Part shown: piece after piece, positions 702-31,223 of the stretch | Position numbering within the stretch: position 1 is the stretch's first letter | Layout: the number at the start of each line of letters is the position of its first letter | IMG/VR virus record: IMGVR_UViG_3300045988_076504 | Location: 1 to 64,000 of that record | Direction: 5' to 3' (one strand) | Source of the DNA: a virus | DNA length: 64,000 bases | Made by a program: the position numbers and the translations under genes | Notes under the pieces: generated by a model | Databases searched by the model: none | The model's input: only the letters and a program-made list of their open reading frames with translations | What the model was told of the DNA's origin: nothing

Positions 702-948
702 ATTTCTCCCTATATTGATTATATTGTTCTGGACTTAGAAAGTAATTCTCATTTTCTTCAGAACATTCATACATGTCTGAATCTATTTCATAATCACTTT
801 CAGATAATACACACTGCCAATCGGCATGGGATAGGTCATATTGACCTAATTCCCAACCGTTGGTTTTACAAATAGCTTTAAGCTTCCTCACGTCCGCGTG
901 AAACCGGCGTCTCTTCAGCTCTTCTGCACTCTGTGTTCTCTTTTTCAT
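685..948 (-). CDS. hypothetical protein (basic N-terminus, acidic C-terminus)
   Basis: The ORF-track start at 957 is TTG; the first ATG is at 948 (MKKRTQSAEELKRRR...). Stop is TAA. It overlaps the upstream gene by about 70 nt in another frame. Confidence 0.45.
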   Translation of the reverse strand: MKKRTQSAEELKRRRFHADVRKLKAICKTNGWELGQYDLSHADWQCVLSESDYEIDSDMYECSEENENYFLSPEQYNQYREKYGYEY

Positions 949-1234
949 CGTAACCAAGATTTACAACATTTTTTATAATGTCGTTCATTTTACGTATACG
1001 GACAAATGTCTCATTCCACAACTTTGCCGTTGCTTTTGTTGCGGTTATCGTTTTGTTTAACAGCTTTTCGTCTGTCACATCTTCAAACTTTATTTTTAAT
1101 TCGTCCTCGGTTTTGTGGAGTAATACGTGAATAGAATCTGCACCTTTGTCTCCAATACTGTATATAACATCCAGTACATTCTCTGCAAAATCTTGAGGAT
1201 TTGTTACTTTTAAAGTTATTGTTTTACTTTTCAT
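878..1234 (-). CDS. hypothetical protein
   Basis: 118-aa ORF. Its ATG overlaps the TGA of the upstream gene (ATGA junction at 1231-1234). Confidence 0.55.
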   Translation of the reverse strand: MKSKTITLKVTNPQDFAENVLDVIYSIGDKGADSIHVLLHKTEDELKIKFEDVTDEKLLNKTITATKATAKLWNETFVRIRKMNDIIKNVVNLGYDEKENTECRRAEETPVSRGREEA

Positions 1235-1650
1235 TTTTGATAAATTTTAAAGTTTAGATAGCCATTTTTTGAGCCTCCGTAGGAAGCTCCTTTATACTTA
1301 ATAACACGAGAGAGAACACCATCCTTTTTACGTTTGAGGATAGCGAGATTACATGAACACTTAAGTTCACAACACAATATCATGTAATCAACGATAGATT
1401 TAGAAACTTGAATGGCCTCTTGACAACCTTGATATTTATATATCATATAGTTTCTTTTATCCATCATATAGACAGATATTACATCTTTGTTGATTACTGG
1501 TATTGTATCATACTGAACTGTTGGTTTTACAGTTCTGTACGATTGTGCTGAGCATTTGTTAGCTGATATTAACAACGCTATTACGATTATTAATAATACT
1601 GCTACTGTTTTAGCACATCTGGTTTGATACCTATCTTCTTGATTTTCCAT
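1231..1650 (-). CDS. hypothetical secreted or membrane-anchored protein
   Basis: 139 aa with an N-terminal hydrophobic segment TVAVLLIIVIALLISANKCSAQ (signal or anchor-like). Confidence 0.6.
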   Translation of the reverse strand: MENQEDRYQTRCAKTVAVLLIIVIALLISANKCSAQSYRTVKPTVQYDTIPVINKDVISVYMMDKRNYMIYKYQGCQEAIQVSKSIVDYMILCCELKCSCNLAILKRKKDGVLSRVIKYKGASYGGSKNGYLNFKIYQK

Positions 1651-1709
1651 TTTTATTGTTTTTCTGTTTTACTCTAATTGCTCCGGTTTAAACTCACGAT
1701 GTTTCATAG

Positions 1710-2096
1710 TCACTCCTCCTTTATGCCGAACGGACTGCCGTCTGCAAAAGTTGCATTATTGAATGCGTCTTCATATGTACTATGATATTCATTCATGTAC
1801 AAATATGAATCGTTCAAACTCACAATTATCTCTTGACTACGTTCTTGGTATTGAGTTTCCGGTCTTTCTAACCATCCGTATGGAAGATGATTTTTCATTT
1901 CTGTCAAACATTCGTCCATATTGTCAAATGGTCGATATCTTAATTTTGGTTCGATACGATAGTTTTCTGGACCTTTAGTAAAATCAGGATTTGCTGGATA
2001 ATGCCAATTACCATAATTGTCTTTTATTTGTATTGTTTTTCCTTCCGCATATGCTGTGATTATAGGAAGGAGTTCTTTTGCTTCTTCTTTTGTCAT
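1710..2096 (-). CDS. hypothetical protein
   Basis: 128-aa ATG-to-TGA ORF, tightly packed with its neighbours. Confidence 0.65.
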   Translation of the reverse strand: MTKEEAKELLPIITAYAEGKTIQIKDNYGNWHYPANPDFTKGPENYRIEPKLRYRPFDNMDECLTEMKNHLPYGWLERPETQYQERSQEIIVSLNDSYLYMNEYHSTYEDAFNNATFADGSPFGIKEE

Positions 2097-2875: not shown

Positions 2876-3061
2876 TCAAGGATGTTTGTATGCTACTATT
2901 GTAGCTATTATTGTTATAAATCCTATTGTTGACAGTATTGTTTTTATAAGCGGACTTGCTATCGCACTTATTATGGCTAATACTACAAAAATTAAGACTG
3001 CAATAAATATATACATAGTGAATGCACCAAACACTTTTAAAAATATTTTCCAATTAAACAT
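2876..3061 (-). CDS. small membrane protein (2 predicted TM segments)
   Basis: 61 aa, almost entirely hydrophobic (FGAFTMYIFIAVLIFVVLAIISAIA...IGFITIIATIVAY). It starts 27 nt downstream of the tRNA-like gene. Confidence 0.5.
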   Translation of the reverse strand: MFNWKIFLKVFGAFTMYIFIAVLIFVVLAIISAIASPLIKTILSTIGFITIIATIVAYKHP

Positions 3062-3087
3062 ATTGTTACAATTAGTTTACAAAAGTG

Positions 3088-3156
3088 TTAGACTATTAGG
3101 ATTCGAACCTAAAATAACAGATAAGTCTGACGTGTTACCAGTTACACTATAGTCTA
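3088..3156 (-). ncRNA. tRNA-like gene (paralogue of the nearby tRNA-Gln) with a collapsed anticodon loop; possibly a pseudo-tRNA
   Basis: The minus strand reads TAGACTA TA GTGT AACTGGTA ACAC G TCAGA CTTA TCTGT TATT TTAGG TTCGAAT CCTAA TAGTCTA A. Acceptor, D arm and T arm are perfect. The D arm, anticodon stem and variable loop are nearly identical to tRNA-Gln at 3789-3860. The anticodon loop is only 4 nt (CTTA) and pair 27:43 is T:T. Confidence 0.6.
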
Positions 3157-3297
3157 AATAAGGCCAGTTCTCAAGCTGGAAATCTCAAACAGAACGACAA
3201 GGACTTTCACCTTATACACCTTTCGGTATGGTTAAATAACCACATGTCTATATTTCACCACGTTCCTCGATTTACTTCCTTACATTTAAAATATTAG

Positions 3298-3426
3298 TTC
3301 CAAACAGGGAATCGAACCCTTATCGATACATGTCTCGACAAATCACCATCCACATAATTCACTTCCACGACGTCAATGCATGTGCCGCTTAAATGAATAG
3401 GTTTGCTATGCGGTAGATTATTTGGA
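3298..3426 (-). ncRNA. 129-nt element ending in a tRNA-type T-arm and 7-bp acceptor-like helix; not a canonical tRNA
   Basis: The minus-strand 3' end reads AGGG TTCGATT CCCT GTTTGGA. GTTTGGA can pair with TCCAAAT (3426-3420) located 128 nt upstream. No canonical D or anticodon arm could be folded between them. Confidence 0.3.
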
Positions 3427-3715
3427 CCCGCGTCTCTCCGCGTGTCATACGTATGGATTAACTGTTCAACATTCACCGCTATCGGCTATAACCTTGCGCT
3501 AGATTATAACGTAGTCGGAGTTTACAGGCTTACAACTGTCACAATGGCTGTTTTAATTAATCACATGTAAACGAGCAGTTTTGAGGACATGCTCAGGTCC
3601 CTACAGACAGTTTATACTCGTGATGGAGTTGACATTATGAATACCAAATGTCGTTTGTAATAATGAAGAATAATGTATGCATATTTATTTAGATTTAGTG
3701 AATAATCTTATAAAA

Positions 3716-3743
3716 ACTATGCTATTTTCACGAACCGCATAGT
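3716..3743 (-). repeat. conserved-loop hairpin, copy 1
   Basis: Plus strand ACTATGC-TATTTTCACGAACC-GCATAGT: 7-bp stem and 14-nt loop. On the minus strand it is followed by TTTTTAT. Confidence 0.75.
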
Positions 3744-3788
3744 AAAAACATATGGAAATATACCTACATGTCTAATAAAATGTAAGCG

Positions 3789-3860
3789 TCAGGCTGTCAG
3801 GACTCGAACCTGAAATAACAGAACCAAAATCTGTTGTGTTCCCAATTACACTACAACCCG
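3789..3860 (-). tRNA. tRNA-Gln (anticodon UUG)
   Basis: Minus strand: CGGGTTG TA GTGT AATTGGGA ACAC A ACAGA TTTTGGT TCTGT TATT TCAGG TTCGAGT CCTGA CAGCCTG A. This is a 72-nt cloverleaf with all arms paired (two G:U pairs in the acceptor). Anticodon positions 34-36 are TTG. CCA is not encoded. Confidence 0.85.
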
Positions 3861-3862
3861 TA

Positions 3863-3894
3863 ATATACATCTATTTTCACAAACCGATGTATAT
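3863..3894 (-). repeat. conserved-loop hairpin, copy 2 (2 nt upstream of the tRNA-Gln 5' end)
   Basis: Plus strand ATATACATC-TATTTTCACAAACC-GATGTATAT: 9-bp stem and 14-nt loop. Confidence 0.75.
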
Positions 3895-3929
3895 ATAATG
3901 TTTAACATCTAAAATATATAATGGCTCCT

Positions 3930-3980
3930 AATCCGACACTACTGTGTTTCGTCTTAATTTTCAAAGACTCATCAGGGATT
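3930..3980 (-). ncRNA. hammerhead self-cleaving ribozyme (stem I open, stems II and III capped)
   Basis: Minus strand: AATCC CTGATGA GTCTT-TGAAAATT-AAGAC GAA ACAC-AGTA-GTGT C / GGATT. All core residues are present: C3-U4-G5-A6-U7-G8-A9, the G10.1:C11.1 pair, G12-A13-A14, the A15.1:U16.1 pair and C17. Stem I is 5 bp, stem II 5 bp, stem III 4 bp. The predicted cut is after C17, between plus coordinates 3935 and 3934. Confidence 0.85.
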
Positions 3981-3983
3981 TTT

Positions 3984-4015
3984 AAATACACCTATTCTCA
4001 CGAACCAGTGTATTT
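3984..4015 (-). repeat. conserved-loop hairpin, copy 3 (between the stop of gene 4029-4343 and the hammerhead)
   Basis: Plus strand AAATACAC-cTATTCTCACGAACCa-GTGTATTT: 8-bp stem, with the same loop core carrying one substitution. Confidence 0.75.
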
Positions 4016-4028
4016 TTACCAACTATGT

Positions 4029-4343
4029 CTATGGTTTCTTATGTGTTATGTCGTCAATTTTTTGACAGGATAGCCAAAAGTCTACCCCATCGTCAGATTC
4101 ATCAAAACCATCTCCTGTATTGTCTACTTGGTTGATGTAGACCTTTACGGCGATTGTTCTAAACTCTTCATAAGCATCAATTATTTGCTGTTGATGCTCA
4201 ACTTTTTTTTCGAGGGCTGTTACCTCGCTCTCTGAAGTACATCCAGAAAGAATCGCTGTTAACCACATTAGTACGAATACTAATATGATTGTGCTTAGAG
4301 GAATCCATGTTTCCGTCCAAGCTTCTTTGTCGTCTTTGTCCAT
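4029..4343 (-). CDS. membrane-anchored hypothetical protein
   Basis: 104 aa with one TM segment (LSTIILVFVLMWLTAILSG). It ends on TAG, used here as a stop. Confidence 0.6.
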   Translation of the reverse strand: MDKDDKEAWTETWIPLSTIILVFVLMWLTAILSGCTSESEVTALEKKVEHQQQIIDAYEEFRTIAVKVYINQVDNTGDGFDESDDGVDFWLSCQKIDDITHKKP

Positions 4344-4344
4344 A

Positions 4345-4677
4345 TTATACGTATTTAAATTTACAAATACCTGCTTCTTCAGCTTCTTTTATACTGAAAT
4401 CTAGCCAATCGGCATGTGAAGAATTAGTATCAACATATCCATATTCAATGCTAACATTGCATGTGTCAAGGTGTGTGACTTTGGTAAATGTGATGTTTTT
4501 TCTCGTACAGTATTTCTTTAGCGCTTCTACATCTACGCTTTCAACTTCTACTGGGACACCACGTATCAGAGTATCTACACACTCATCTTCCAACAACAAA
4601 GATAGACGTTTTGCTACTTTATTTGGATTTTCCTCAATTAGCGCTTTGATAGCATATTCTTTTGTTTCTTTATTCAT
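4345..4677 (-). CDS. hypothetical protein
   Basis: 110-aa ATG-to-TAA ORF, 1 nt from the downstream gene. Confidence 0.65.
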   Translation of the reverse strand: MNKETKEYAIKALIEENPNKVAKRLSLLLEDECVDTLIRGVPVEVESVDVEALKKYCTRKNITFTKVTHLDTCNVSIEYGYVDTNSSHADWLDFSIKEAEEAGICKFKYV

Positions 4678-11708: not shown

Positions 11709-12070
11709 TTATTACAGATAACGAGTGTTTCAACCTGGATGGTGAAACTGGAAACGTTGTTCGCAATATGAATGTAAAGTGGAATTTTACAAATCGTATT
11801 TTTTACATCGAACAAGATGGTGCATTAAAGATTCCAGAAGATAACGATTATGTAGTAGATTTCGATCCAAACGAAGTAAAAGCTGGAGATTTTATATTTA
11901 TTTCTTACAGGATTGACGGTAAGATGCATATAATCCTTCTTAAGGATAAGGGCCTTATAGATCTTATGAATCTATTTAAAGAAGATCGTGAAAAACGTAG
12001 ATTGGAAACATTATCTTGTGAAGGGTGCGAAAATTGTTGTGCAGATTGTGATGATTTAAAAGAAGCTTAA
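11696..12070 (+). CDS. hypothetical protein with a C-terminal Cys cluster
   Basis: 124 aa ending ...SCEGCENCCADCDDLKEA. Confidence 0.65.
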   Translation: MKVNIITDNECFNLDGETGNVVRNMNVKWNFTNRIFYIEQDGALKIPEDNDYVVDFDPNEVKAGDFIFISYRIDGKMHIILLKDKGLIDLMNLFKEDREKRRLETLSCEGCENCCADCDDLKEA

Positions 12071-12074
12071 GATT

Positions 12075-12374
12075 ATGAATACTAAGAAAACAAAGAAAAA
12101 TGCTAACGTTACTATTACAGTAAAGTTGTTAAATATTACAGATCCCACAGATGCGTATAAACTGTTTGCTATTGCAAAGTTTAATAATATGCGCGATGCG
12201 GAAAAGGATATTATATCTAAGACCATTATAGATCTTTATTTCAATACGCTAACGTATGAGATAAATTCAGCTCTTGCTGATATGGACGTGGAAGCTGCGA
12301 ACGCTCATAAAGTTCGCGAAAAGAAACCAAATATCTTTAAGAGATTCTGGAATTGGATTACACGTAAAAAGTAA
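12075..12374 (+). CDS. hypothetical basic protein
   Basis: 99-aa ATG-to-TAA ORF. Confidence 0.65.
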   Translation: MNTKKTKKNANVTITVKLLNITDPTDAYKLFAIAKFNNMRDAEKDIISKTIIDLYFNTLTYEINSALADMDVEAANAHKVREKKPNIFKRFWNWITRKK

Positions 12375-12381
12375 TCATGTT

Positions 12382-12431
12382 AAGTAATCCTTGGTGGGTA
12401 TCAAAAGTCGGGTTCGATTCCCGAATTACTA
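12382..12431 (+). ncRNA. tRNA-like acceptor/T-arm minihelix (too short for a tRNA)
   Basis: AAGTAAT cc TTG-gtgggtat-CAA aag TCGGG TTCGATT CCCGA ATTACTA. It has a perfect T-arm and a 6-bp acceptor-like helix, but only 19 nt where the D and anticodon arms should be. Confidence 0.3.
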
Positions 12432-12554
12432 CTTATTCAAAAAGTAATTGAGTCCATGTCAGGAGGCTCTGACGTTAAAGTGCCTCATAATGCCCATTTG
12501 CGTACGTTAGCTAGCGCGCCGGGCTCTTTTGTCCAATGAATAATTGAATATATA

Positions 12555-13457
12555 ATGGAAAATAAAATATATAAACTCTCAGACGAACAGTTTGTTGAGT
12601 TACTCAAGAAAAGTTCAACAATATCTGAAGTATTGTTTAAACTTGGTTATACAGTTAAAGGAAACTCTTGGGGATATTCTCAAATAAAAAGAAGAATGGA
12701 TGATCTGAATTTAGACCATTCTATATTCAAGGGGAAATCCGCTATTATAAAAACTACCAAGCTAAACAATGTAAAGAAAGAAGATATACTAAAAGAAAAT
12801 TGTAAGCATCAACGTACAGTATTAAGAAGATACATAATCAAAAACAACTTGATACCCTATAAGTGTGCAATATGTGGATGCACCGAATGGCAAGGGAAAA
12901 CGTTAAGTTTGGAACTTGACCATATAAACGGAATAAATAATGACAATAGATTAGAAAACCTTAGATTTTTATGTCCTAATTGCCATAGTCAAACATCAAC
13001 ATATGGAAGCAGAAATCAACAGCTTAATAGTTCTGAATATGATATATCAGACGACTTGAGAAAGATGGTTGAAGAGAAATACGACGAAGTTAAAAGTGTT
13101 AAAAAGGTATCGTCTATACTTGGAATACGAAGGTGTGTTGTTACGAAAATAGTTAACGAGTCTGGTCAAAAACATTCTAATCAGAAATATATAATAAGGT
13201 ATGATAAAGATTGGAATGAACTTGCAAGATATGGTTCTCTCGTAGAAGCTGCCAAGGCTTTGATAGAGGCTGATGAAGTTAAAACCAATAGAGTAAAGAC
13301 CTGCACTAGAACTATAATGTACAATAAAGATAATTTTTGGTTGGACAGTCATTGGAAAATATTGGATGGTAGCGGGATAATAAATAATCCGTTATTAGAA
13401 CCTTCTCTAATTGACTCGGAAGACACTGTTGACGAGGCGCAAGCGAAAGCAGCGTGA
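12555..13457 (+). CDS. HNH homing endonuclease
   Basis: 300 aa containing CAICGC...ELDHINGINNDNRLENLRFLCPNCHSQT (HNH/His-Me finger). Stop is TGA and there is no internal TAG. Confidence 0.85.
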   Translation: MENKIYKLSDEQFVELLKKSSTISEVLFKLGYTVKGNSWGYSQIKRRMDDLNLDHSIFKGKSAIIKTTKLNNVKKEDILKENCKHQRTVLRRYIIKNNLIPYKCAICGCTEWQGKTLSLELDHINGINNDNRLENLRFLCPNCHSQTSTYGSRNQQLNSSEYDISDDLRKMVEEKYDEVKSVKKVSSILGIRRCVVTKIVNESGQKHSNQKYIIRYDKDWNELARYGSLVEAAKALIEADEVKTNRVKTCTRTIMYNKDNFWLDSHWKILDGSGIINNPLLEPSLIDSEDTVDEAQAKAA

Positions 13458-13571
13458 CAGACTAAACGAGAAGGCTGACCTTAGGGTTGGATGCAATAGT
13501 CGAGCTATGAACCCCGGAGGAGTGGGGGCAGCACCTACATGGGTAACTATTAAAAATAATAAAAAGCATAT

Positions 13572-14108
13572 ATGGAACTGAAATTTAAAAAACTAGATGA
13601 TAAGGCTGTAATGCCGATTAGAGCTTACAAAAGTGATGCAGGATTAGATTTAACATGTACAAAAATTGTACCTGTACGTAATGCTTGTAATCAGCTTTTG
13701 TTGGAGTATCATACAGGTCTTGCTGTAGAAATTCCTGAAGGTTATGTAGGTCTTTTATTTCCACGTAGTAGTGTATTTAAGACATCTTTAATACAATCAA
13801 ACTGTGTGGGTGTTATTGATAGCGGTTATCGTGGAGAAGTTAAGGCAATTTTTAGAAATACTACAGATGTTATTCCTGCAGTATTTCAAGAAGGTGAAAG
13901 ATTCTGCCAATTGGTAATTGTACCAATTCCAGAGATTACAGTAGTAGAATCCTCAGAATTGAGCGAAGGAGATCGTGGTGAAAATGGTTACGGTTCCTCA
14001 GGAAATACAAACAAAGACAAAAATATTAGCGCAGAGCAACCTTCTGATGACGATCAGACAGAGACTCCAGCGGCGGTTGCTGGTCAAGCAACTGAGGCAG
14101 ATGCATAA
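13572..14108 (+). CDS. dut: dUTP diphosphatase (trimeric dUTPase) with a low-complexity acidic C-terminal extension
   Basis: All five dUTPase motifs are visible: AGLDL, GLLFPRSS, GVIDSGYRGE, ERFCQLVI and RGENGYGSSG. Confidence 0.9.
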   Translation: MELKFKKLDDKAVMPIRAYKSDAGLDLTCTKIVPVRNACNQLLLEYHTGLAVEIPEGYVGLLFPRSSVFKTSLIQSNCVGVIDSGYRGEVKAIFRNTTDVIPAVFQEGERFCQLVIVPIPEITVVESSELSEGDRGENGYGSSGNTNKDKNISAEQPSDDDQTETPAAVAGQATEADA

Positions 14109-14126
14109 TTAATTATTAACTGCATT

Positions 14127-14162
14127 GATAAGGGAGCATTCTAATTGGAGTGCCCCCTTATC
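14127..14162 (+). terminator. long hairpin after dut (possible terminator)
   Basis: GATAAGGGAGCA...TGCCCCCTTATC forms 12 pairing positions with one mismatch, followed by GTGTTTATATT. Confidence 0.4.
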
Positions 14163-14184
14163 GTGTTTATATTAAAATGTAATT

Positions 14185-14703
14185 ATGTTTGATATACAAG
14201 GAAACAAAATTATACTAAAAACAGACGAACTTGCAATACCTCCATTCAAGGATTATTACAATAACGCAAAAGACAAATCTAGAGCTATACAAGATATTGA
14301 ATTTGTAATATGGCGTTATAGATGGAATACCCCATACGAAGCGTATCCAGAAAAAGAACGTACATGGAGAGTTGCAAAAGATGTTTTTAAAGATGAACAT
14401 TATGAACCAACAGCAGAGATAAAAGAATTAGCAAAACGTTTCAATGAGTTTCAAGAAACACCTATGACGCGATTGCTCACATCTTCAAAACATGCTGCTG
14501 AGGCGATAATGAATGTAATGAACGAATATTCACAAGAAGACCTTGATATAGACACCGCAACTAAAGTATCAAAGCTACTTAAAGATATAAGTGGTATTAT
14601 TAAATCGCTAGATTTAGCGATGAAACAAGCAAAAGCAGAACAAGCTGAAACAGGTCGTGTAAAAGGTGGTGGTGTTATAGGTCTATATGAAAGCCCTAAA
14701 TAA
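14185..14703 (+). CDS. hypothetical protein immediately upstream of terL
   Basis: 172-aa ORF. Its TAA overlaps the terL ATG (TAATG). Confidence 0.7.
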   Translation: MFDIQGNKIILKTDELAIPPFKDYYNNAKDKSRAIQDIEFVIWRYRWNTPYEAYPEKERTWRVAKDVFKDEHYEPTAEIKELAKRFNEFQETPMTRLLTSSKHAAEAIMNVMNEYSQEDLDIDTATKVSKLLKDISGIIKSLDLAMKQAKAEQAETGRVKGGGVIGLYESPK

Positions 14704-17700
14704 TGGTTGATTTTAATTAGCATATAAAGAATACTAAGAAGTTCTGTGAAGCGGCAGAATTTTTCAAAGTACATAAATGTTATACTTTAGCTCCCAGAGG
14801 TACGACAGATTATGTTAAATATTGGGAGCGCGAAACAGACAGATGTTTAAATGGGTACACAGCTCCAGACGGTGATCAAATAACAGGCTATCATTATTTC
14901 TATCTTAATTACTGTCCTATTATGAGATTGGATGAAACAGAATATACAGATAGAAACGGAGATACACGTAAACGAAGAGAACGTATATTTGATTTCCCTA
15001 AGTTCTGGGATTATGATTATTATTATTTTAATGCTGTAGAAGAAGCTGAAACTGTCGGTAAACACATGGCGGTATTAAAATGTCGTCAGAGAGGTTATAG
15101 TTTTAAAGGAGCTGCGATGTTAGTTCGTAATTATGAGCTTATTCCAGGATCCAAGAACTTTGCAGTGGCTTCTGAACAGAAATTCTTAGTCGGTGACGGT
15201 TTGTTAACAAAAGCTTGGCAGATCATGGACTTTATAGATAAGAATACAGCGTGGGCGAAGTAGCGTTTGACGTCTACTCGTATGGAACGTGTGTCTGGTT
15301 ATAAAGTTACTGACGAGTTTGGTAAATAGACAGAATAGGGTTATTTATCGAGCATTACAGGAATCACTCTTAAAAATGACCCAGAACGTATTCGTGGTAC
15401 CCGTGGTAGATTAGTATTGTGGGAGGAGAGTGGAAAATTCCCAAGCTTGTTAGATGCTTGGCGTGTTGAACAACCTGCAGTAGAGACGGACGATGGTGTA
15501 GCATTCGGATTAATGATTAGTTTTGGTACAGGAGGTACTGAAGGAGCTTCGTTTGACGGATTGAAGGAGTTGTTTTATAAACCAAAAGCTTATAACGTGC
15601 TTTCGTTCCCAAATATTTGGGACGACAACGCAGAATAGACAGAATGTGGTTTCTTTGTACCAGCTTGGAGTAATCTTGAATCTTTTGATGAAGACGGTAA
15701 GTATATCTACATGGATGAAGACGGAAATAGTTTTCGTGAAAAAACTATTGAAGAACTTATAAAGCAACGTAATATTATTAAAGACGGAGGAGCTAGCCAA
15801 TAGTCTATAGACAGGTTTATATCCGAGCGTCCTATAAAGCCACAAGAAGCTGTATTGGAGCTTGGTAAAAATATATTTCCACGTAAACTTTTAATGGACC
15901 AACTTACACGTTTACGTACAAATAAGAAGCTTCAAAGTATGAAGCATATTGTAGATCTTAGTTGGGACGGAAATGGTAACGTAATAGCTACAGAAAAGAA
16001 AACAGGCGATATTACAAACTATCCGTTAAAGAAAGATTAGAAGCCTGCAGGATCCGTTGTGATATGGGAGTACCCAGTAAAGGATCCTCCATTTGGATTA
16101 TACATAGGAGGCTGTTTGACACCTGGTGAAAAAGTTTGTACGTAGCGTGGATTGATAAATGTTGAGGATGTTACTTTAGACGATAAGCTTATAAACAAAG
16201 ATGGAAAGTTTGTAGAAATAAAAAACCTTTAGAGGTATGATAAGGTAAACGAACCTATTTTCACATTGAAACCGTATGGTTCGTTTAGAACTACAACGTT
16301 TACCGGAGAACATCCTATATGGATACATAATAAAGGCTTTGTAAAAGCCAAAAATGTAAAGTAGGGAGATTGGCTGGAAATACCAAATACGTATAAAATA
16401 GACTGTATTGAAGATGACGATCGTCTTGCAAAATTGTATTATTTTTACGGCTTGTGGTTAGGAGATGGATTTTGTAACAAAAACGGAAATTCTCATGACA
16501 TATATTTGTCTATCGGAAAGAACGAAACAGATCTCGCATAGTTTTATGATCAACTTGTTGCGGAGTTGTTCGATAGAAAATGTATACATGTGCATAAAGA
16601 TAGAGAAGAGACTCGGAGATTTACAGACAAACGGTTATTTTAGGAACTTAAATCTTTATTTGGAACAAACGCACACAACAAGAGAATTCCAGAATGTATA
16701 AAAAAACTACCATACAATTACAAATTGCATTTCTTACAAGGGTATCTCGATTCTGATGGTTCTGTATTTTTAGATAATGGAAAAGTAAGAACAAACTTCA
16801 CAAGTGTGAACTTAGAACTTCTAGAAGATGTTCAAGATATGCTTTTTGGAATGGGTATCGCAAATAGTATCGTAATACATCAAAAAGAAACTACAAACAA
16901 ACAAGGTGTTCATTCGCAACAATCATATAGAATAAATATAAGTAGATCACATCAGATATCTTTAGCACTATTTCCTATATTTAACAGCAGAAAAATTAAA
17001 TTATTAAGTACTGCTGAGTACACATCATATGATAGAATGGATGTGAAATTCGCAGATGATAAAACACTGTTAAAAATTTAGAATGTAAATGATTCGTCAT
17101 ACACAGGAGTTGTATATAATTTTGAATGTGAGACACATACATTTATGTGTAGAAACATTTTAACACACAACTGCGACCCGTTAACACATCAGCGGGGTAT
17201 AATCGAGCAAAAACGGTGAAAGTCTAGAACAGAAAACACCGTGCTAATCTTACAGATTGCGAAAGGCTGTAAGACAGTGTAACGCATAGGAGATGAATAA
17301 ATATAATTCTCCCACGAGTGCTCGACACCATTTTTGGTGATGATATATGCTGAACTACATGGGGACATGTAGAAGTTAAGATAAAAAACTTAGCGATAAC
17401 AAATTGATGATCACGACGAATCGTTTACAAACTCATTAGGGTCAACATTTATATTTAAACGTGTTCAAGCAGGAGAAGCTTGGACAGATGTAATAGTAGC
17501 TGAGTATTCTGGAAGACCGGATACAGCGGAAGAATACTATGAAAACGTTCGTAAACTACTATTGTTCTATAATGCGAGATTGTTATTTGAGAACGAACGT
17601 AAAGGTATATATCCATATTTTACAAACAAACATTGTGATTACTTATTAGCCGATTAGCCAGATAAAGTAATCAGTGAATTATTTAAGAATTCTACAGTAC

Positions 17701-18044
17701 AACGTAGAAAAGGTTGCCATATGACAAAATAGATAAGGGCGTATGGTGAAGGTTTGATATTAGAATGGATGATGGAAGAATATGAACCAGGGCATCCAAA
17801 TATTGAACGTATATTTAGCGAACCGTTGATAGAAGAGTTAATAATGGACGATTAGGTTCGCAATGTGGACCGTGTTATAGCACTATGCATGGTCATGATT
17901 TATAGAGAAGAATTATATCAAGTAAAAGTATCAAGTGCTAAAGAGTAGAATAAGTAGGTAGAACTCTTCGAAAAGCCATTATTTAGCGATTAGTGGTGGG
18001 ACGATGGTCCGCAGGAAGATGATTTGCCAATATTTAGTTTTTAA
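14703..18044 (+). CDS. terL: terminase large subunit, TAG-recoded, interrupted by an intein and a group-I-like intron
   Basis: One frame runs from ATG 14703 to TAA 18042-18044. The ORF-track pieces 14922-15263, 15417-15638, 15855-16040 and 16725-17081 and the unlisted stretches between them are separated only by TAG (the first at 14718). Sequence includes ...KYWERETDRCLNGY...GYHYFYLNYCPI... and ...RIRGTRGRLVLWEESGKF. TGA/TAA stops occur only inside 17217-17400, the intron. Confidence 0.9.
16113..17171 (+). mobile_element. intein with LAGLIDADG homing-endonuclease domain, inserted in terL
   Basis: 353 codons. It starts ...LYIGG|CLTPGEKV. Block B is FTGEHPIW. The LAGLIDADG motifs are LWLGDGF and FLQGYLDSDGSV. 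It ends VYNFECETHTFMCRNILTHN|C, with the +1 Cys at 17172-17174. It contains in-frame TAGs itself. Confidence 0.85.
17182..17406 (+). mobile_element. ORF-less group-I-like intron in terL (225 nt)
   Basis: Exon 1 ends CCCGU (17177-17181), which pairs with GCGGG (17192-17196) and gives the U:G wobble at the splice site. The intron ends in G (17406). Joining the exons gives CCG TAT GAT CAC GAC = P-Y-D-H-D in frame. Frame 0 has TGA/TAA stops only inside this interval. Internal hairpins are CTTACAG...CTGTAAG and CTACATG-GGGA-CATGTAG. Confidence 0.65.
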
Positions 18045-18047
18045 TCA

Positions 18048-20534
18048 ATGGTAGAAGATAATTTATATAATTCGAGATTCCCTTAGCAGAAATTACTGCT
18101 ATCGAAGAAAAATGAAAAATGGCAGCACGATTGCGTAAATTATATTATTGGCGAAGGCAATATCGTTTCAGGGGGATAGACGCATACTGCACATGGAGAG
18201 ATGCAGACTTATTATAATCTGTATAATAGTATATTCGATGAGAAGGATTTTAAAAAGATAACAAATCCATTTAAGGTAGAAGAAGGTTTTCCTGCAACAC
18301 CTTAGGATTTTAATATCATCAGACCCAAAATAGACCTTCTCATCGGAGAAGAAACTAAACGACCATTAAACTTTAGAGTTGTACGAACATCACAGGAAGC
18401 AACATCTGAGTTAATGGAGACGTAGAAATAGTTATTAATGCAATATATGCAATCAGCATTAATGGCACAAATGGGTCCAGAAGAACAGCAACAGTTTCAG
18501 GAACAATTACAAAACGGCGAAATAATGCCACCTGAACAAATTGCTAAATATATGGACAAAGACTACAAAGATGTAGTAGAAAACACCGCATATCACACAC
18601 TTACGTATTTAAGAGAAAAATTAGGCATCGATAACGAGTTTATCAAAGGCTGGAAAGATGCGCTCATTAGCGGTCAAGAAGTGTATTATGTTGGTGTACT
18701 TAACTCAGAACCATATATGGAGAGAGTTAACCCTATGTATTTTTCATACGATAGAAGCCCGGATCTTGAATTTATAGAAGACGGCGCTTGGTGTTGTAGA
18801 AGAATGCGTTTACCTATCACCGAAGTTTATGATAGGTATTATGACAAACTCACAGAAAAAGATTTGAACAAACTTGAAGAAATGATAAATGCTGTACCTG
18901 CAAATAATCTTGGAGAACATGGTCCAAGAGATGATTTCAGAGGTATACAATTACATTTCTATGACAATCCTATATATGACGAAAAAGGTAATCACAATGT
19001 AAATGTATGGCATTGTTGCTGGAAATCTTTTAAGCGTATTAACTATGTCACTACACAAGACGAACAAGGTCAAATGTAGGTAAATATAGTTGACGAAACA
19101 TACCAACCTACAGGTACTGAAATTTCTATTGAACCGGATTGGATAGTTGAAGTATGGGAAGGATATAGGTGTAGCAACGATCTGTTTTTTGGTATACAAC
19201 CTATTGAATATCAGCATGTGAGCATAGATAATCCTAACAGTCAAAAGCTTCCGTATTGTGGAGCTATATACAGCAATACAAACAGTAGACCGAGATCTCT
19301 TGTTAGTATTCTCAAACCTCTACAATATATGTATATAGTATTGTGGTATAGATTGGAACTTGCGATAGCTAGAGATAAAGGTAAGGTTGTAAATATGGAT
19401 GTTACGTAGATACCTAAATCTATGGGTATTACTGTTGATAAATGGATGCATTATCTTTCAAGTGTTGGTGTTAACTTTATAAATCCTTTTGATACGGGTT
19501 GGAATATTCCGAATCGTGAAGGAGGAAAGCCGAGTCAGTTCAATCAGATTACATCTCTCGATCTTACAATGTCAAATGTTATAGCTGAATATATACAGTT
19601 GATGGATAAAATCGAACAACTTGCGGGGACCATATCTGGTATTACAGAACAACGTCAAGGTGCAATTAGTTCTACAGAACTTGTAGGAAATGTGGAACGT
19701 AGCGTTACACAATCATCACACATTACAGAACCTCTATTCTGGGTACACGCTCAAGTAAAGCGTCACGTATTAAATATGTTGCTAAATACTGCAAAAGGAG
19801 CTTGGCAAGAAACTGGTAAAGATAAATTACAATACATCTTCGATAACGGAGAAAGAGCGTTTATAGACATAACAAATAAATTCTATTATGAGGATATGGA
19901 TGTATTTGTATCAGATACATCAAAAGATCTTGAAAATATATAGAAGTTACAACAGCTTATACAGCCAGCTATGCAGAATGGAGCATCTCTATTAGAAGCT
20001 GCTGAGATTCTTACAAATGATAATTTCAACATCATTAAGCAGAAACTCAAGGATATGCAGACTCGTCAAGAGCAGCAAGTACAACAGCAACAACAGGCAC
20101 AAGCAGAACAGGAACAGAAGATTCAAGAAATGCAGAATCAAGCTAAAGAACAAGAGCTTATGTTGCAAGAGGCACAGATGGATCTTACACGTTATCAGAT
20201 AGATCAAGACAACGCTACTAAGATTGCTGTAGCTGAAATTAGTGCTTACCGTGGTACAGAAGACAAGGACGCAAATATGAACGGAATACCAGACATGATG
20301 GAAATCGGTAAACAGGCGTTGGAACACCAAAAGCTTCAAATGGAATCATACGATAGACAATACGAGTCTAAACAAAAACGAGAAATCGAAAATGCTAAAA
20401 TTCGACTGGAGCGTGATAAGATGTCTCACGAAACGTCATTACAAAAACAGAAGGATGATGCGGCATATAAAAGAGAAGAACTTAAAGCCAAAACAGCTTT
20501 AAAAAATCCAGTATCTGGGGAACATAAAAAATAA
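18048..20534 (+). CDS. portal protein (by position and size), TAG-recoded
   Basis: 828 codons in one frame from ATG 18048 to TAA 20532-20534. There are 8 in-frame TAGs (18084, 18177, 18303, 18423, 18429, 19077, 19407, 19941). It directly follows terL and has a Gln/Glu-rich coiled C-terminus. Confidence 0.7.
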
Positions 20535-20542
20535 TAATTATC

Positions 20543-21115
20543 ATGAAAGAAGAGTGGAAAATCATAGAAGGTACTAATGGAAAGTACTCGGTATCTAATT
20601 TAGGAAATGTTAAAATGAACGAACATTACACTGAAATTACTCCATCAAAAACTAATCCTTTAGGAAAAGCAAAATTGTACAAAGAACGACCGGTAAAACA
20701 ATATTTGAATTGTAACGGTTATCCGATAGTGTATTTACAAATATCGAAAGGTAATAGGGTGATAAAACCAGTACATAGACTTGTCGCCCAAGCATTTATA
20801 CCGAATCCACATAATCTACCATTTGTGAATCATAAAGATGAATCTAGATGTAATAACAATGCGGACAACTTAGAATGGTGCGATCCAAAATATAATGCGA
20901 ATTATGGTACAAGAAACGAAAGATTGCGAATAGCTGGAGGACGAAAAGTAGCACAGTATACATTAGATGGAGAGTTTGTAAAGATTTGGGATAGTGTATC
21001 TTCAATATCACAATATTATGGTATAAAATCAACAGCTCCTATATCTAGAGTATGTCGTCATATGAAGGGAAGACTTACTTATAAAGGATATAAATGGGAG
21101 TATGTGAATTGTTAG
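20543..21115 (+). CDS. free-standing NUMOD4/HNH_3-type homing endonuclease
   Basis: EWKIIEGTNGKYSVSNLGNVK (NUMOD4-like) and NGYPIVYL...VHRLVAQAFIPNPHNLPFVNHKDESRCNNNADNLEW (HNH_3-like). It ends on TAG at 21113. If TAG is read through, it extends to TAA at 21206-21208. Confidence 0.8.
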   Translation: MKEEWKIIEGTNGKYSVSNLGNVKMNEHYTEITPSKTNPLGKAKLYKERPVKQYLNCNGYPIVYLQISKGNRVIKPVHRLVAQAFIPNPHNLPFVNHKDESRCNNNADNLEWCDPKYNANYGTRNERLRIAGGRKVAQYTLDGEFVKIWDSVSSISQYYGIKSTAPISRVCRHMKGRLTYKGYKWEYVNC

Positions 21116-21191
21116 AAATACGATCTTGGAAAACTTACGAAGGAACAGCTGATAGAATTAAAGGATTAGATAGAAGAAAAATTAAAAACAT

Positions 21192-21983
21192 ATGATACAC
21201 AATTATAATAAACCGTCTGAATTACTCGCCAGACAAAAACAAACTGGCGAGTCTTATTGGGATATGATAGGTAAACCTCTACCAGAATACAAACGTGGTA
21301 AATCAGTGTATCAACAATTTGTAGAAACACATCGTAGAGGGTTGTATAGATATTTAAAAGCTCATAATTTACCAACTACGGCATTAGATAACATGGTTCG
21401 TCAAATGGCATGGGAATCTACATATGGAACATCAAACGTTGCTAAGAAATATAACAACTATGGTGGATACGGGTATAATGGTAAAACTTATACCAACTTT
21501 AAAAACGATGAAGATTTCTATAAAGCGTACGTAGGTCTTATAAATAAAATGGGGGCTTTGCGTGAAACTGATACAAATAAATATGCGAGAATACTTAAAA
21601 ACAAAGGTTATTACGGAGATTCGTATGAAAATTATTCTAAGAATTTGAATTCCATGAAACAGGCAGAGAAATGGATATTGAACGAATAGAAATATAATAA
21701 ATAGTTCTACGGAAACCCTCAAATGAAATTATCAGATTTTGATGGAGACGATTTGATACAAAAGAAAACAAACCCAGCTCCCGTAGATAATACATTTGTT
21801 GAAAAGCCTGAAATAGTTCCACAAACACCGGATCTTCATTTACAACCTGTATCATATGATTCGCAATATTAGAGTTCGTTACCAGACATTATGCAAACCT
21901 ACCAAAGAATGACAAGCGGACAGATGCCGTTGCAAACATTAAATAATACAGAGTACGGATATGAAGACTATACAGAAGCCTAA
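21192..21983 (+). CDS. glucosaminidase (FlgJ-type)-like peptidoglycan hydrolase domain protein, TAG-recoded
   Basis: VRQMAWESTYGTSNVAKKYNNYGGYGY resembles the ESGWG.S.LA...NN.FGIK block. The frame continues through TAGs at 21687, 21702 and 21870 to TAA at 21981-21983. Confidence 0.55.
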
Positions 21984-24222: not shown

Positions 24223-24326
24223 AAATATAGCTCAACATTACGCAAACGTGCCAATTTTGCGAGAAATTTCGCACATTGAGCAGCAATTTAAATACAATTT
24301 AATTTAACTAATTATTATATATAATT

Positions 24327-25472
24327 ATGGCAAAAAAGAAAAACGGTCTATCAACATTCGATGACGCTTTAAGAAAGCTTGGTTATGATGGAGAAGTAAC
24401 AGATCCTATATCAAATATGGATGAGGATGATGTTGACATCGTAGACCAGTCTGATGATGATATTGACGACTTGGACGACAAAGATGATCCCGACAATGCC
24501 GGTGGACCAGACGATGATACACAGGATCTAAATGATCCAAACAATAACGATAATACACCTGTTCCAGATCAAAATAATCTGAATGATGATTTAAATGATA
24601 ATCCTGACGATTAGGACAAACCTTCTACTGATGCAGATAAACTTGAAACGCAGAACGTAAGGTTGTTCTTTGACGCATTCGCAGAGGAATTAGGATGGGA
24701 TGTAGCAGATGATGAAAAACCAGATTCAATGGAGGGCCTTATCAACTATATTGAAGATACAGTTGCTGAGAACTCTAAACCTCAATATGCAGATGACCGT
24801 ATTGCACGACTTGACGCGTATGTCAAGAACGGTGGTAAATTTGAAGATTTCTATAATGGAATGTCTCAGAACATACAATACGATAATATGGATATGGAGG
24901 ACGAATCTAATCAAAAGATGGCAGTCCGTGATTATTTAAAACTATCTGGCTACTCTGATGAGCAGATTGATAAAAAGATAGAAAGATACGAGGATGCAGA
25001 CATGCTTGAAGATGAAGCTACAGATGCGATAGAAAGACTTAAAGAGCATCAGCAGTTGCAACTTCAACATCAACAGGAAGAGCAAGAGGCGTTGCGTATT
25101 CAACAGCAGCAACAAGCTCAACAGTTTGTTACAAGTTTGAATAATACAATAAATTCTCTTGATAGTATTAGAGGAATAGCCATACCTAAACAAGACAGAA
25201 AAGCTCTATTTGATTATATTACAAAGGTAGATGCTTCCGGTATGACACAATATCAGAAAGATTTTAACGCTAATATGACAGAGAACCTTATAGAGTCTGC
25301 ATATTTCACAATGAAAGGCGATGCCCTCATCGGGGAAGCTAAACGCACTGGTCAAACGACTGCTGCAGAAAAACTTAGAAAAATGTTAAGATATTAGACT
25401 AAGAATCATAGTAGTTTTAATATAGATGATAAGAAACGTTCAGTAGCTGATATTGCGTCAAGATGGCTATGA
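24327..25472 (+). CDS. acidic coiled-coil protein upstream of the MCP (scaffold-like), TAG-recoded
   Basis: Pieces 24327-24614 and 24663-25397 share a frame. It has a poly-Asp/Asn N-terminus and a QQ-rich helix. It ends at TGA 25470-25472. Confidence 0.6.
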
Positions 25473-25496
25473 GAACATTAATCAATAAATAAATTT

Positions 25497-27020: not shown

Positions 27021-27046
27021 AACAATATATAATAATTAACGATCGA

Positions 27047-27066
27047 GTTGGGGTTTATTCCCCAAC
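27047..27066 (+). terminator. hairpin after the MCP gene (weak terminator candidate)
   Basis: GTTGGGG-TTTATT-CCCCAAC, with no clear T-tract. Confidence 0.35.
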
Positions 27067-27097
27067 GACCGACGTTACAACATACTAATTTTAAATT

Positions 27098-27850: not shown

Positions 27851-27867
27851 TTAAAATTATACGACGT

Positions 27868-30034: not shown

Positions 30035-30112
30035 TTTTAACGTGGAAACCTCAGCTAGTTAGGTCTAGTATTATTAAATAGAGGGAGTAGAAAAAATTAA
30101 ATATTTTAAATT

Positions 30113-31159: not shown

Positions 31160-31179
31160 TTATTAACTTACATTACTTG

Positions 31180-31202: not shown

Positions 31203-31223
31203 AATGTTCTAATACACACTATT

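Follow-up and report, generated by a model that had tools for sequence, protein, structure and literature searches.

A type-I hammerhead ribozyme of a large phage-borne family upstream of tRNA-Gln in a crAss-like phage, predicted to part mRNA from tRNA precursor

The window, by which we mean the whole 64,000-nucleotide stretch of viral DNA that was analysed, carries on its minus strand a small protein gene followed by a non-coding island around a tRNA-Gln. The features of this locus, including orthologous elements noted in the related locus L123, are given below in the order of minus-strand transcription.

4029..4343, minus strand: upstream protein gene, 104 aa, predicted membrane or lipoprotein-like, with a TAG stop at 4031..4029
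3984..4015, minus strand: hairpin A (GGUUCGUGAGAAUAG), lower stem of ~9 bp, G.A mismatch, upper stem GUUC/GAAU, GUGA tetraloop
3982, minus strand: family-conserved A, 7 nt 5' of C3
3930..3980, minus strand: type-I hammerhead ribozyme, assigned from core and stems, model R1, covariation and shuffles
3980-3976 and 3934-3930, minus strand: hammerhead stem I, 5' strand AAUCC and 3' strand GGAUU
3975-3969, minus strand: hammerhead core segment CUGAUGA
3968-3951, minus strand: hammerhead stem II, GUCUU, loop UGAAAAUU, AAGAC
3950-3948, minus strand: hammerhead core segment GAA
3947-3936, minus strand: hammerhead stem III, ACAC, loop AGUA, GUGU
3935, minus strand: hammerhead C17, with the predicted scissile bond between C17 (3935) and G1.1 (3934)
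3863..3894, minus strand: hairpin B, GUGA module (GGUUUGUGAAAAUAG), ending 2 nt before tRNA-Gln
3788..3860, minus strand: tRNA-Gln, anticodon UUG, without encoded CCA (ARAGORN; Rfam tRNA 59 bits)
3716..3743, minus strand: hairpin C, GUGA module (GGUUCGUGAAAAUAG), then UUUUUAUAAG; orthologous hairpin in L123
3456..3562, minus strand: probable variant twister ribozyme, type P1, 233 nt downstream of tRNA-Gln
3298..3426, minus strand: tRNA-shaped RNA, acceptor stem UCCAAAU/GUUUGGA, canonical T-arm GGGUUCGAUUCCC, large variable D-region insertion
3088..3156, minus strand: tRNA-like paralogue of tRNA-Gln with a 4-nt anticodon loop, CAGA-CUUA-UCUG (Rfam tRNA 56.3 bits; no ARAGORN call)

TAG is read as a sense codon in the late genes of this phage.

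Every nucleotide of the hammerhead class core is in place at 3980..3930, namely C3 U4 G5 A6 N7 G8 A9 and G12 A13 A14, with a C where the class admits H17 (not G), and both the A15.1-U16.1 (A3947-U3936) and G10.1-C11.1 pairs are found. The original prediction of a complete hammerhead on the minus strand is thus borne out, with stems of 5, 5 and 4 bp, as is its assignment of the open helix to stem I, which gives type-I topology. Its placement also agrees with the coordinates: the ribozyme lies between the stop of gene 4029-4343 and the hairpin-plus-tRNA-Gln unit, with 35 nt to hairpin B, where about 35 nt had been given. Hairpin A ends 3-4 nt before stem I, and the predicted cut falls 74 nt 5' of the tRNA-Gln start. 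A plus-strand ORF overlapping the ribozyme (3921..4073) was dismissed because conservation here is RNA-structural and not codon-like.

A covariance model, R1, seeded with 21 hammerheads from other phages and excluding the window sequence, scores the site at 66.3 bits (E 2.5e-18) as the sole match in 64 kb, the runner-up within the window reaching 12.9 bits. A relaxed type-I descriptor matches the real window exactly once and finds at least one match in only 3 of 300 dinucleotide shuffles of it. When the 6 kb around the site were compared with GenBank phages by megablast, only the hammerhead itself matched, in three crAss-like genomes. Given the shuffles, the R1 E-value and the restriction of megablast matches to the hammerhead, a chance match is excluded.

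Rfam gives a different picture, reporting no ribozyme in the window at gathering thresholds. In an E-value scan of 3000..4400 the best scores were 26.6 bits for Hammerhead_3 (gathering 48.5) and 23.8 bits for the RAGATH-1 hammerhead (gathering 56.3), and all hammerhead families tested (RF00163, RF00008, RF02275-7) scored below their thresholds; the type-III model puts stems I and III out of register on the window copy. The original prediction had treated covariance-model scores below gathering as grounds for giving up the ribozyme. The scores do fall below, but they are uninformative as a refutation, because at the same thresholds Rfam also reported no member of the covariation-supported UGARAAUU-loop family in 14 related loci, some of the best R1 matches included. 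The shortfall marks where the Rfam library reaches its limit and is no defect of the sequence. The low Rfam score is one of three observations that would suit a chance or decayed hammerhead-like motif that no longer cleaves. The others are a register-shifted stem I (CCUGAU/AUUAGG), which ties up core nucleotides and whose predicted stability slightly exceeds that of the active fold (-11.4 versus -9.7 kcal/mol, a difference of 1.7), and a z-score of only -1.44 for the isolated fold. The shortness of stems I (5 bp) and III (4 bp) likewise counts against a functional ribozyme. Against decay stand the E-value from an independent family model, the rarity of descriptor matches in shuffles, and an intact, canonical core accompanied by both family extras, loop 2 and the A 7 nt 5' of C3, so that we regard a decayed or chance motif as extremely unlikely.

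The family to which the element belongs is very large and stereotyped. Its exact 30-nt core plus stem II was found in more than 119 viral contigs and 32 bacterial MAG contigs; the phage contigs span 4-282 kb, and the MAG contigs are assigned to Clostridia, Bacilli, Bacteroides, Elusimicrobia, Melainabacteria and Gammaproteobacteria. Among the exact-core copies, 117 of 131 parse as full type-I hammerheads, among them 62 distinct stem I strands and 76 distinct stem IIIs. Four features make up the family signature: an open stem I of 5-6 bp, an A placed 7 nt 5' of C3 (kept in 105 of 107 sequences), a 5-bp stem II with loop UGARAAUU, and a variable stem III hairpin; position H17 is C in 74, U in 12 and A in 3 of 89 unique type-I sequences. 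All three helices around the core are supported by covariation, which is heavy in stems I and III. In alignment A2, 96.1% of cells are paired versus 72.2% after shuffling, with two-sided changes at 10 pairs; in alignment A3 (107 distinct sequences) the values are 96.0% and 69.0%, with both sides changing in 15 of 17 pairs. None of 500 shuffles reached the observed values, and slid controls were 34-46% paired. Stem II variants also covary (GUAUC/GAUAC, GUCGU/ACGAC) while loop 2 remains UGARAAUU. Fast hammerhead cleavage at physiological Mg2+ requires a tertiary contact between the regions of stem I and stem II, and the conserved loop 2 together with the A 7 nt 5' of C3 is, from sequence, consistent with such a contact.

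That phage operons contain hammerheads has been known since 2010-2011. As an element in a phage intergenic region, the window hammerhead is of an already known kind (PMC3088659, PMC6155905, PMC6765202). It shares with bacterial and phage type-I hammerheads (Rfam clan CL00010; Perreault et al. 2011, PMC3088659; de la Pena 2017, PMC6155905) an identical catalytic core, a three-helix junction with an open stem I, a location between genes of a phage operon (several copies to an operon in relatives), and a proposed role in cutting polycistronic transcripts. What sets it apart is a signature of its own, with loop 2 UGARAAUU, a stem I of 5-6 bp and the A placed 7 nt 5' of C3, and the tRNA that takes the place of a protein gene downstream in the window and two relatives. 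The RAGATH-1 hammerhead (RF03152) is also type I, with a hairpin and A-rich linker in front, and is carried by the same crAss-like group (73.2 bits in locus L001, 65.8 bits in L066, and also at the end of L003). RAGATH-1 has a minimal stem II of G-C plus a short loop, unlike the 5-bp stem II and 8-nt loop found here, and the window copy does not belong to it by score; Rfam at gathering thresholds found no RAGATH-1 copy in the window. In the literature searched, which did not extend to the alignment datasets of Perreault 2011 and Jimenez 2011, the exact stem II and hairpin sequences were not found. Rfam-based annotation would probably leave the family unmarked, because no member was reported at gathering thresholds in the loci scanned. 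The window hammerhead is a member of a family that is common in gut phages and poorly annotated.

In two related crAss-like loci, L028 and L123, the gene is likewise followed by a hairpin, the hammerhead, a second hairpin and tRNA-Gln(UUG), and homologues of the upstream protein occupy the same position in both (43% identity in L028, 50% in L123). Searching with the upstream protein alone found no relatives; L123 was recovered using an alignment of that protein with its L028 homologue. Stem I, AAUCC/GGAUU in the window, is UGUCU/AGACA and CACAC/GUGUG in L028 and L123, and stem III, ACAC/GUGU in the window, is ACUC/GAGU and ACGC/GCGU, all fully compensated. The compensatory changes in three orthologues indicate purifying selection on the fold and not recent insertion. 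This bears on whether the hammerhead spreads horizontally as a passenger or selfish element and brings the phage little benefit at the tRNA-Gln locus. Such a reading gains from the identical 30-nt core plus stem II across phage contigs and MAG contigs of several phyla, from the hammerhead being the only part of 6 kb shared at megablast level with other crAss-like genomes, and from its site in an indel-rich island, ~700 nt of whose non-coding sequence is absent from L028. Retention in three orthologous loci argues against it, as do the flanks, which vary among family copies, and the family copies examined show no mobile-element boundaries; we consider it quite unlikely.

The same three loci raise the question of a link to tRNAs. 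Only 3 of ~132 family copies lie upstream of a tRNA, all at these orthologous crAss-like loci and always before tRNA-Gln(UUG), and across 928 kb of phage loci rich in tRNAs the model detects just 2 hammerheads. A general hammerhead-tRNA link is accordingly rejected; placement before a tRNA is uncommon for an otherwise familiar element. In keeping with the original prediction, which knew of no annotation of such an arrangement, the literature searched describes hammerheads neither on the 5' side of a phage tRNA nor in any crAss-like phage. Suoliviridae genomes carry dense ribozyme islands with hammerhead, RAGATH-1 hammerhead, RAGATH-14 and hatchet ribozymes and a candidate twister.

Theta ribozymes (Kienbeck et al. 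2024, PMC10879173) are minimal HDV-like ribozymes next to gut-phage tRNAs, with a cleavage site reported adjacent to the tRNA and a postulated role in tRNA 3' trailer processing. The window element is similar in being a small ribozyme of a self-cleaving class near a same-strand tRNA in a TAG-recoding gut Caudoviricetes phage. It differs in belonging to the hammerhead class, in lying upstream and not downstream of the tRNA, in a predicted cut 74 nt from the tRNA and not at its end, in a tRNA association that is clade-specific and not family-wide, and in a tRNA that is no suppressor. The Rfam E-value scan of 3000..4400 gave no HDV-family match, and the theta double-pseudoknot fold was not found. 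The earlier analogy to tRNA-flanking HDV-like ribozymes is not supported, since a family with 3 of ~132 copies before a tRNA, and a cut 74 nt off it, is not tRNA-dedicated. These observations also weigh on the idea of a dedicated tRNA-processing ribozyme, a 5' counterpart of theta acting in tRNA-Gln maturation or regulation and possibly tied to TAG recoding. Hammerhead, hairpin and tRNA-Gln(UUG) are indeed kept in three crAss-like contigs despite divergent stems and spacers, and late-gene TAG recoding is the setting reported for theta ribozymes (PMC10879173). The rarity of tRNA-linked copies, the scarcity of hammerheads in tRNA-rich loci, a non-conserved spacer that places the cut 62-110 nt from the tRNA in the relatives and leaves RNase P necessary, and the ordinary identity of the tRNA make a dedicated role unlikely.

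Hairpins do lie on both sides of the hammerhead, as first described, but their conserved part is the 4-bp upper stem with the G.A mismatch and its GUGA tetraloop cap, not a loop alone. This GUGA hairpin is a widespread gut-phage module, with 67 unique forms in a sample of IMG/VR: U-rich tails follow 30 of them, 9 precede a tRNA by 2-13 nt, and TTTG stands 4-9 nt upstream of 14. The module could be a terminator, a 5'-leader element or a processing site; hairpin C looks terminator-like because UUUUUAUAAG comes next. The flanking hairpins were rejected as part of the ribozyme, as most family copies have no hairpins and most hairpins no hammerhead. Further along the island, the tRNA-shaped RNA at 3298..3426 is called by neither ARAGORN nor Rfam and has a conserved counterpart in L123, where the acceptor stem shows a wobble and an anticodon-like stem covaries. 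The tRNA-like element at 3088..3156 is probably a decayed copy, and no homologues of it were found in IMG/VR. The Rfam E-value scan revealed no further ribozyme in 3295..3157 or 3715..3563.

The candidate at 3562..3456 resembles the type-P1 twister ribozyme (Rfam RF03160), reportedly described by Roth et al. 2014. Its helices are P1 GAUUAAU/GUUAAUC, P2 AACA/UGUU, P4 ACAG/CUGU and a P5 insertion hairpin, its loops are L2 GCC, L4 UUGUAAGC and an L1 3' strand GAACA, and cleavage is predicted at U3555|A3554. Twister pseudoknots, reviewed with the ribozyme in PMC5408937, are T1, of 3 bp between L4 and L1, and T2, between the GC of L2 and the GC of L4. The candidate has P1, the U|A site, a 4-bp P2, P4, the L2 GC, an L4 ending in AAGC, the optional P5 and an L1 3' strand beginning with GA, and both pseudoknots can form. 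It is unlike type-P1 twisters in its large P5 insertion and at the ~ten nucleotides of L1 and L4 that are >97% conserved: L4 is UUGUAAGC and not UCCCAAGC, and L1 is GAACA and not GAGGG, such that the near-invariant L4 CCC and L1 GGG are exchanged for UGU and ACA, still mutually pairing, and T1 would be UGU:ACA instead of the consensus CCC:GGG. The Rfam twister-P1 model gives just 15.2 bits versus a gathering threshold of 67.2, yet aligns all helices and loops to their twister-P1 counterparts. A descriptor requiring both pseudoknots has 11 unique matches in 2.46 Mb versus 1 in 5 shuffles, and the L123 orthologue shows compensatory changes in P1, P2 (A-U to G-C), T2 (G-C to A-U) and P5. Homologues in the IMG/VR scan were confined to L123's own contig, and a scan of a single metagenome with a 16-mer gave 120 chance matches and no twister.

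RtcB-type ligases join 5'-OH and 2',3'-cyclic phosphate ends. A type-I hammerhead gives a downstream 5'-OH and a type-P1 twister an upstream 2',3'-cyclic phosphate (PMC8782182), and both elements flank tRNA-Gln in the window and L123. Acting as a pair, they might excise a 380-nt RNA (3934..3555) containing tRNA-Gln and bearing these two ends, which are RtcB-type-compatible, so that the RNA could go free without host RNases and perhaps be ligated or circularised. That the twister assignment is based on the descriptor and a single orthologue, that L028 has the hammerhead and tRNA with no twister beside the tRNA, and that transcription may end at hairpin C and its U-tract, between tRNA and twister, all speak against excision, which we judge very unlikely. 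The broader notion that tRNA-Gln sits in a ribozyme-delimited cassette, 5' hammerhead and 3' variant twister, in a TAG-recoded crAss-like phage and is released without host endonuclease is doubtful. If true, it would extend the theta idea, that is, ribozyme-assisted phage tRNA biogenesis and possibly code-switch timing, to two more ribozyme classes and to the tRNA 5' side.

Our preferred reading is that 3980..3930 on the minus strand is a functional type-I hammerhead self-cleaving ribozyme of the large phage-borne family that parts mRNA from tRNA precursor, and we think it probable. A minus-strand transcript would run from gene 4343..4029 into the non-coding island, where the ribozyme would fold and cleave between C3935 and G3934 in vivo. 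Hairpin A and the complete ribozyme would then form the 3' end of the upstream mRNA, which would carry a terminal 2',3'-cyclic phosphate, and the downstream RNA would start with a 5'-hydroxyl and carry hairpin B and pre-tRNA-Gln. The layout supports the original proposal that cleavage after C17 would sever the upstream mRNA from the tRNA precursor. Such a cut would uncouple the two and make no mature tRNA end; because it falls 74 nt upstream of the tRNA 5' end, RNase P would still have to remove that leader, and 3' trimming and CCA addition would also be required. If hairpin A is an efficient terminator, the hammerhead would be made only by read-through. The role is most likely transcript segmentation that would free the upstream message from the tRNA precursor, presumably to the benefit of the phage. 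Most family copies sit between protein genes, in the interval from a stop codon to the following ribosome-binding site, and one operon often has several of them; this fits the published suggestion that hammerheads of bacteria and phages process polycistronic transcripts (PMC6765202, PMC3088659).

None of these findings changes the definition of the hammerhead. They describe a very large, stereotyped type-I family with the same 30-nt core and stem II in phages and in MAG contigs of several phyla, and provide evidence for crAss-like phages as carriers of this UGARAAUU-loop family. The setting is a TAG-recoded phage, where links between ribozymes and tRNAs have lately been proposed, and the locus offers a conserved natural case of a tRNA downstream of a hammerhead, an easily assayed substrate for pre-tRNA processing.

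On the minus strand, positions 3980..3930 of the window read AAUCC-CUGAUGA-GUCUU(UGAAAAUU)AAGAC-GAA-ACAC(AGUA)GUGU-C-GGAUU. All hammerhead invariants are there (C3-A9, G12-A14, the A15.1-U16.1 and G10.1-C11.1 pairs, and C17), the helices comprise 5, 5 and 4 bp (stems I, II and III), and, since stem I is the open helix, the element is a type I hammerhead, whose scissile bond is predicted to lie between C3935 and G3934. The minus-strand sequence thus confirms the complete canonical core and stem arrangement claimed by the original prediction, and the gene with its stop, the hairpins and the tRNA-Gln that it had placed around the hammerhead are likewise found.

Features of the hammerhead locus and the stretch downstream of it
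4343..4029, minus strand: upstream gene, 104 aa, TAG stop
4015..3984, 3894..3863 and 3743..3716, minus strand: three alike GUGA hairpins (A, B and C)
3980..3930, minus strand: type I hammerhead
3860..3788, minus strand: tRNA-Gln(UUG), called by ARAGORN and the Rfam tRNA model
3562..3456, minus strand: candidate variant twister-P1, 233 nt downstream of tRNA-Gln, conserved in L123 (an orthologous hammerhead locus)
3426..3298, minus strand: tRNA-shaped RNA, starting 29 nt beyond the twister-like element and preceded by a CGCGG...CGCGGG hairpin
3156..3088, minus strand: tRNA-Gln paralogue (Rfam tRNA model, 56 bits), anticodon loop of 4 nt, CUUA

The stems of the window copy are short, which is a caveat on its activity, and a competing stem I, shifted in register, has a predicted stability advantage of 1.7 kcal/mol over the active fold; unlike the window copy, the hammerheads of L123 and cr272_1 have the canonical fold as their minimum-energy structure. 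When the window was shuffled 300 times with dinucleotides preserved, a relaxed type I descriptor (stem minima of 4, 3 and 3 bp) matched in only 3 of the shuffles, and in the real window it finds this single site only.

When 6 kb around the site were compared by megablast with 50,697 GenBank phage records, only about 58 nt of hammerhead matched, in three Crassvirales (Suoliviridae) genomes, cr272_1, cr273_1 and cr131_1, all of which leave it unannotated. An exact match to the 30-nt CTGATGAGTCTTTGAAAATTAAGACGAAAC, which spans core and stem II, is found in more than 119 IMG/VR contigs, 4-282 kb long, and in 32 contigs belonging to bacterial MAGs of several assigned phyla. Complete type I hammerheads account for 117 of 131 exact-core copies (89 unique), with C, U and A at H17 in 74, 12 and 3 of the unique sequences, and the parsed copies include 62 stem I strands, nearly always of 5-6 bp, and 76 stem IIIs. 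In a gap-free alignment of 21 hammerheads from other phages, which does not include the window, 96.1% of cells are standard pairs vs 72.2% after shuffling, and 10 pairs vary on both sides. The covariance model built from it scores the window site at 66.3 bits (E 2.5e-18, filters off), with a runner-up of 12.9 bits in the 64 kb. Aligning 130 hits (107 distinct sequences) to the model gives 96.0% paired cells vs 69.0% shuffled, with both sides varying in 15 of 17 pairs, and sliding the 3' partners by 1-3 columns lowers pairing to 34-46%. Where stem II differs (GUAUC/GAUAC, GUAUU/AAUAC, GUCGU/ACGAC), loop 2 is still UGARAAUU, and an A located 7 nt 5' of C3 (A3982 in the window) is present in 105 of the 107 sequences. 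Because of this covariation, the model score, the kept loop 2 and the kept A, the window element is, as judged from sequence, a genuine hammerhead of a large, stereotyped family.

With gathering thresholds applied, two tRNA hits are all that Rfam reports in the window. Under permissive settings, the best hammerhead match is the type III model, which gets the core and stem II right, puts stems I and III out of register, and scores 26.6 bits vs a gathering threshold of 48.5, an outcome that the original prediction had named as evidence against a hammerhead. The window-type family also went without an Rfam hammerhead-family hit at gathering in 14 related loci scanned, which hold some of the best-scoring members under our model, so the low score tells more about the Rfam library than about the sequence. 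In two of these loci Rfam called RAGATH-1 hammerheads; the RAGATH-1-hammerhead model gives the window copy 23.8 bits vs 56.3 at gathering. The window element is a hammerhead of the kind found between phage genes; it belongs neither to RAGATH-1 nor to the theta-type ribozymes.

Dense ribozyme clusters are present in related Suoliviridae genomes. In cr53_1 (NC_055889.1), an unannotated stretch of about 1 kb at 963..1881 holds a RAGATH-14 (205.9 bits), two hatchets (94.5 and 85.5 bits) and a type III hammerhead with stem II and loop 2 as in the window copy (42.2 bits, below gathering). RAGATH-1 hammerheads occur in cr272_1 (L001 136..208) and L066 (2869..2939), and sequence reading places another at the end of L003 (about 1940..1986), where Rfam did not call it; all three crAss-like genomes also carry a standard hammerhead. 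From these copies, the metagenomic RAGATH-1 motif occurs in crAss-like phages.

The window proteins are similar to those of crAss-like phages, and the standard code leaves the plus-strand genes in fragments. With TAG as sense, plus-strand ORFs of 1740, 963, 839, 829 codons and more appear within 12,000..64,000 (e.g. from 14700 and 18045). Because reading TAG as Gln yields unbroken matches over the full length of the large terminase (E 3e-86) and portal protein (E 5.9e-147), with 13 in-frame TAGs in the 839-codon terminase frame (insertion included) and 8 in portal, the phage is TAG-recoded in the late genes. The hammerhead locus lies in a minus-strand block where TAG is still a stop, and the adjoining gene ends in TAG. 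The window yielded no suppressor tRNA. Past the last PHROG-matched residue (about 470), the terminase frame contains a segment (about 16,100..17,200, plus strand) that starts CLTPGEKV, ends HNC and looks like an intein or homing-endonuclease insertion. L028, the crAss-like contig most like the window at the hammerhead locus, carries a permuted tmRNA at 12111..12325 (Rfam tmRNA_permuted, 65.6 bits vs gathering 47), a region whose counterpart would fall outside the window.

What was described earlier as the hairpins' "conserved loop" is in fact an upper stem of 4 bp (GUUC/GAAU) under a GUGA tetraloop; the stem covaries (to GUUU/AAAU and GUCU/AGAU), and beneath it come a G.A mismatch and a lower stem, variable and 6-9 bp long, giving the formula N6-9-GGUUCGUGAGAAUAG-N'6-9. 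The window has these three copies only, and GGTTCGTGAGAATAG is present in more than 120 contigs of IMG/VR. Of 67 unique hairpins, 30 (45%) have a U-rich tail; a tRNA begins 2-13 nt past the end of at least 9; 7 lie within 60 nt after a tRNA; and 14 have TTTG 4-9 nt upstream. The module is not in Rfam (nearest match Prevotella-2, 21 bits). The hairpins form a module widespread in gut phages, where it punctuates tRNA arrays as well as some genes, and may act as a terminator, leader or processing site; we rejected the idea that they are part of the ribozyme.

The original prediction had called the arrangement analogous to, yet distinct from, that of HDV-like ribozymes flanking phage tRNAs; the analogy was not supported. 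ARAGORN, run over the first 123 loci, placed a tRNA within 300 nt downstream of a hammerhead only in the window and L028, tRNA-Gln(UUG) in both; L123, reached through the upstream protein, is a third locus with this layout. Across the three, the upper hairpin parts, the hammerhead core with stem II, and the tRNA are invariant, differences are fully compensatory in stem I (AAUCC/GGAUU, UGUCU/AGACA, CACAC/GUGUG for window, L028 and L123) and stem III (ACAC/GUGU, ACUC/GAGU, ACGC/GCGU), and the spacer from hammerhead to hairpin B is not conserved and varies in length. No tRNA lies within 1.5 kb of the nearly identical hammerhead in the three GenBank crAss-like genomes, and most other family copies sit after a stop codon and ahead of the following ribosome-binding site and start codon, in several loci as tandems of two to four. 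In 928 kb of phage loci rich in these hairpins and in tRNAs, our covariance model found just two hammerheads. As only three loci have the tRNA and most copies lie between protein genes, the hammerhead-tRNA arrangement is kept within one small clade and is not a family property. Theta ribozymes, as described in PMC10879173, which does not mention hammerheads, cut next to tRNAs, with processing of the 3' trailer as their postulated role, whereas the hammerhead's predicted cut lies 74 nt upstream of the tRNA 5' end, and at that distance cannot replace RNase P.

Downstream of the hammerhead, an ORF-poor stretch of about 1 kb forms a non-coding RNA island. Block 3562..3456 scores only 15.2 bits with Rfam twister-P1, with all helices and loops aligned to their counterparts: a 7-bp P1, a 4-bp P2, L2 GCC, P4 with L4 UUGUAAGC, the L1 3' strand GAACA, a large P5 insertion hairpin and a predicted U|A cut site, U3555|A3554. 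With the pseudoknots T1 and T2 defined as in PMC5408937, T1 is UGU:ACA in place of the consensus CCC:GGG. The L123 orthologue (about 741..849) carries compensatory changes in P1, P2 (A-U to G-C), T2 (the L2 G / L4 C pair becomes A / U) and P5. A descriptor needing both pseudoknots found 11 unique twisters with varied T1 in 2.46 Mb of the loci analysed, and 1 hit in five block-shuffles. The block is probably a variant twister. Compact twisters with covarying T1 (CAC:GUG, CCA:UGG, UCC:GGA) occur in phage loci that also carry hammerheads (L028 9691..9761, L123 3067..3142, L039, L078, L085, L101, L138, L234); those of L028 and L123 are unreported by Rfam at gathering thresholds.

In the tRNA-shaped RNA, uncalled by ARAGORN and Rfam, the acceptor stem reads UCCAAAU/GUUUGGA, the T-arm is canonical and a variable insertion enlarges the D region (in the window by two extra hairpins). 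The counterpart of this RNA lies at about 886..962 of L123, and the "anticodon" loop is not conserved. The tRNA-Gln paralogue cannot decode, because its anticodon loop has only 4 nt, and an anchored 18-base pattern over its anticodon arm had no match in IMG/VR. Tetraloop "anticodon" arms are seen in tRNA-like genes of other phage loci too, e.g. L125.

Within the papers searched, none connects hammerheads to crAss-like phages or to a position 5' of phage tRNAs. The best-supported role of the window hammerhead would be co-transcriptional segmentation of a multi-unit transcript, a function that PMC3088659, PMC6765202 and PMC6155905 propose for bacterial and phage hammerheads. Given the type I topology, cleavage would leave nearly the whole ribozyme on the 3' end of the upstream mRNA, which would keep hairpin A and the ribozyme and end in a 2',3'-cyclic phosphate, and the downstream RNA would start 5'-OH-GGAUU and carry hairpin B and pre-tRNA-Gln. 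The benefit may be protection of the mRNA, release of the tRNA precursor for RNase P, or both. The element's interest would rise only if the hammerhead-tRNA-twister cassette turned out to be a functional unit.
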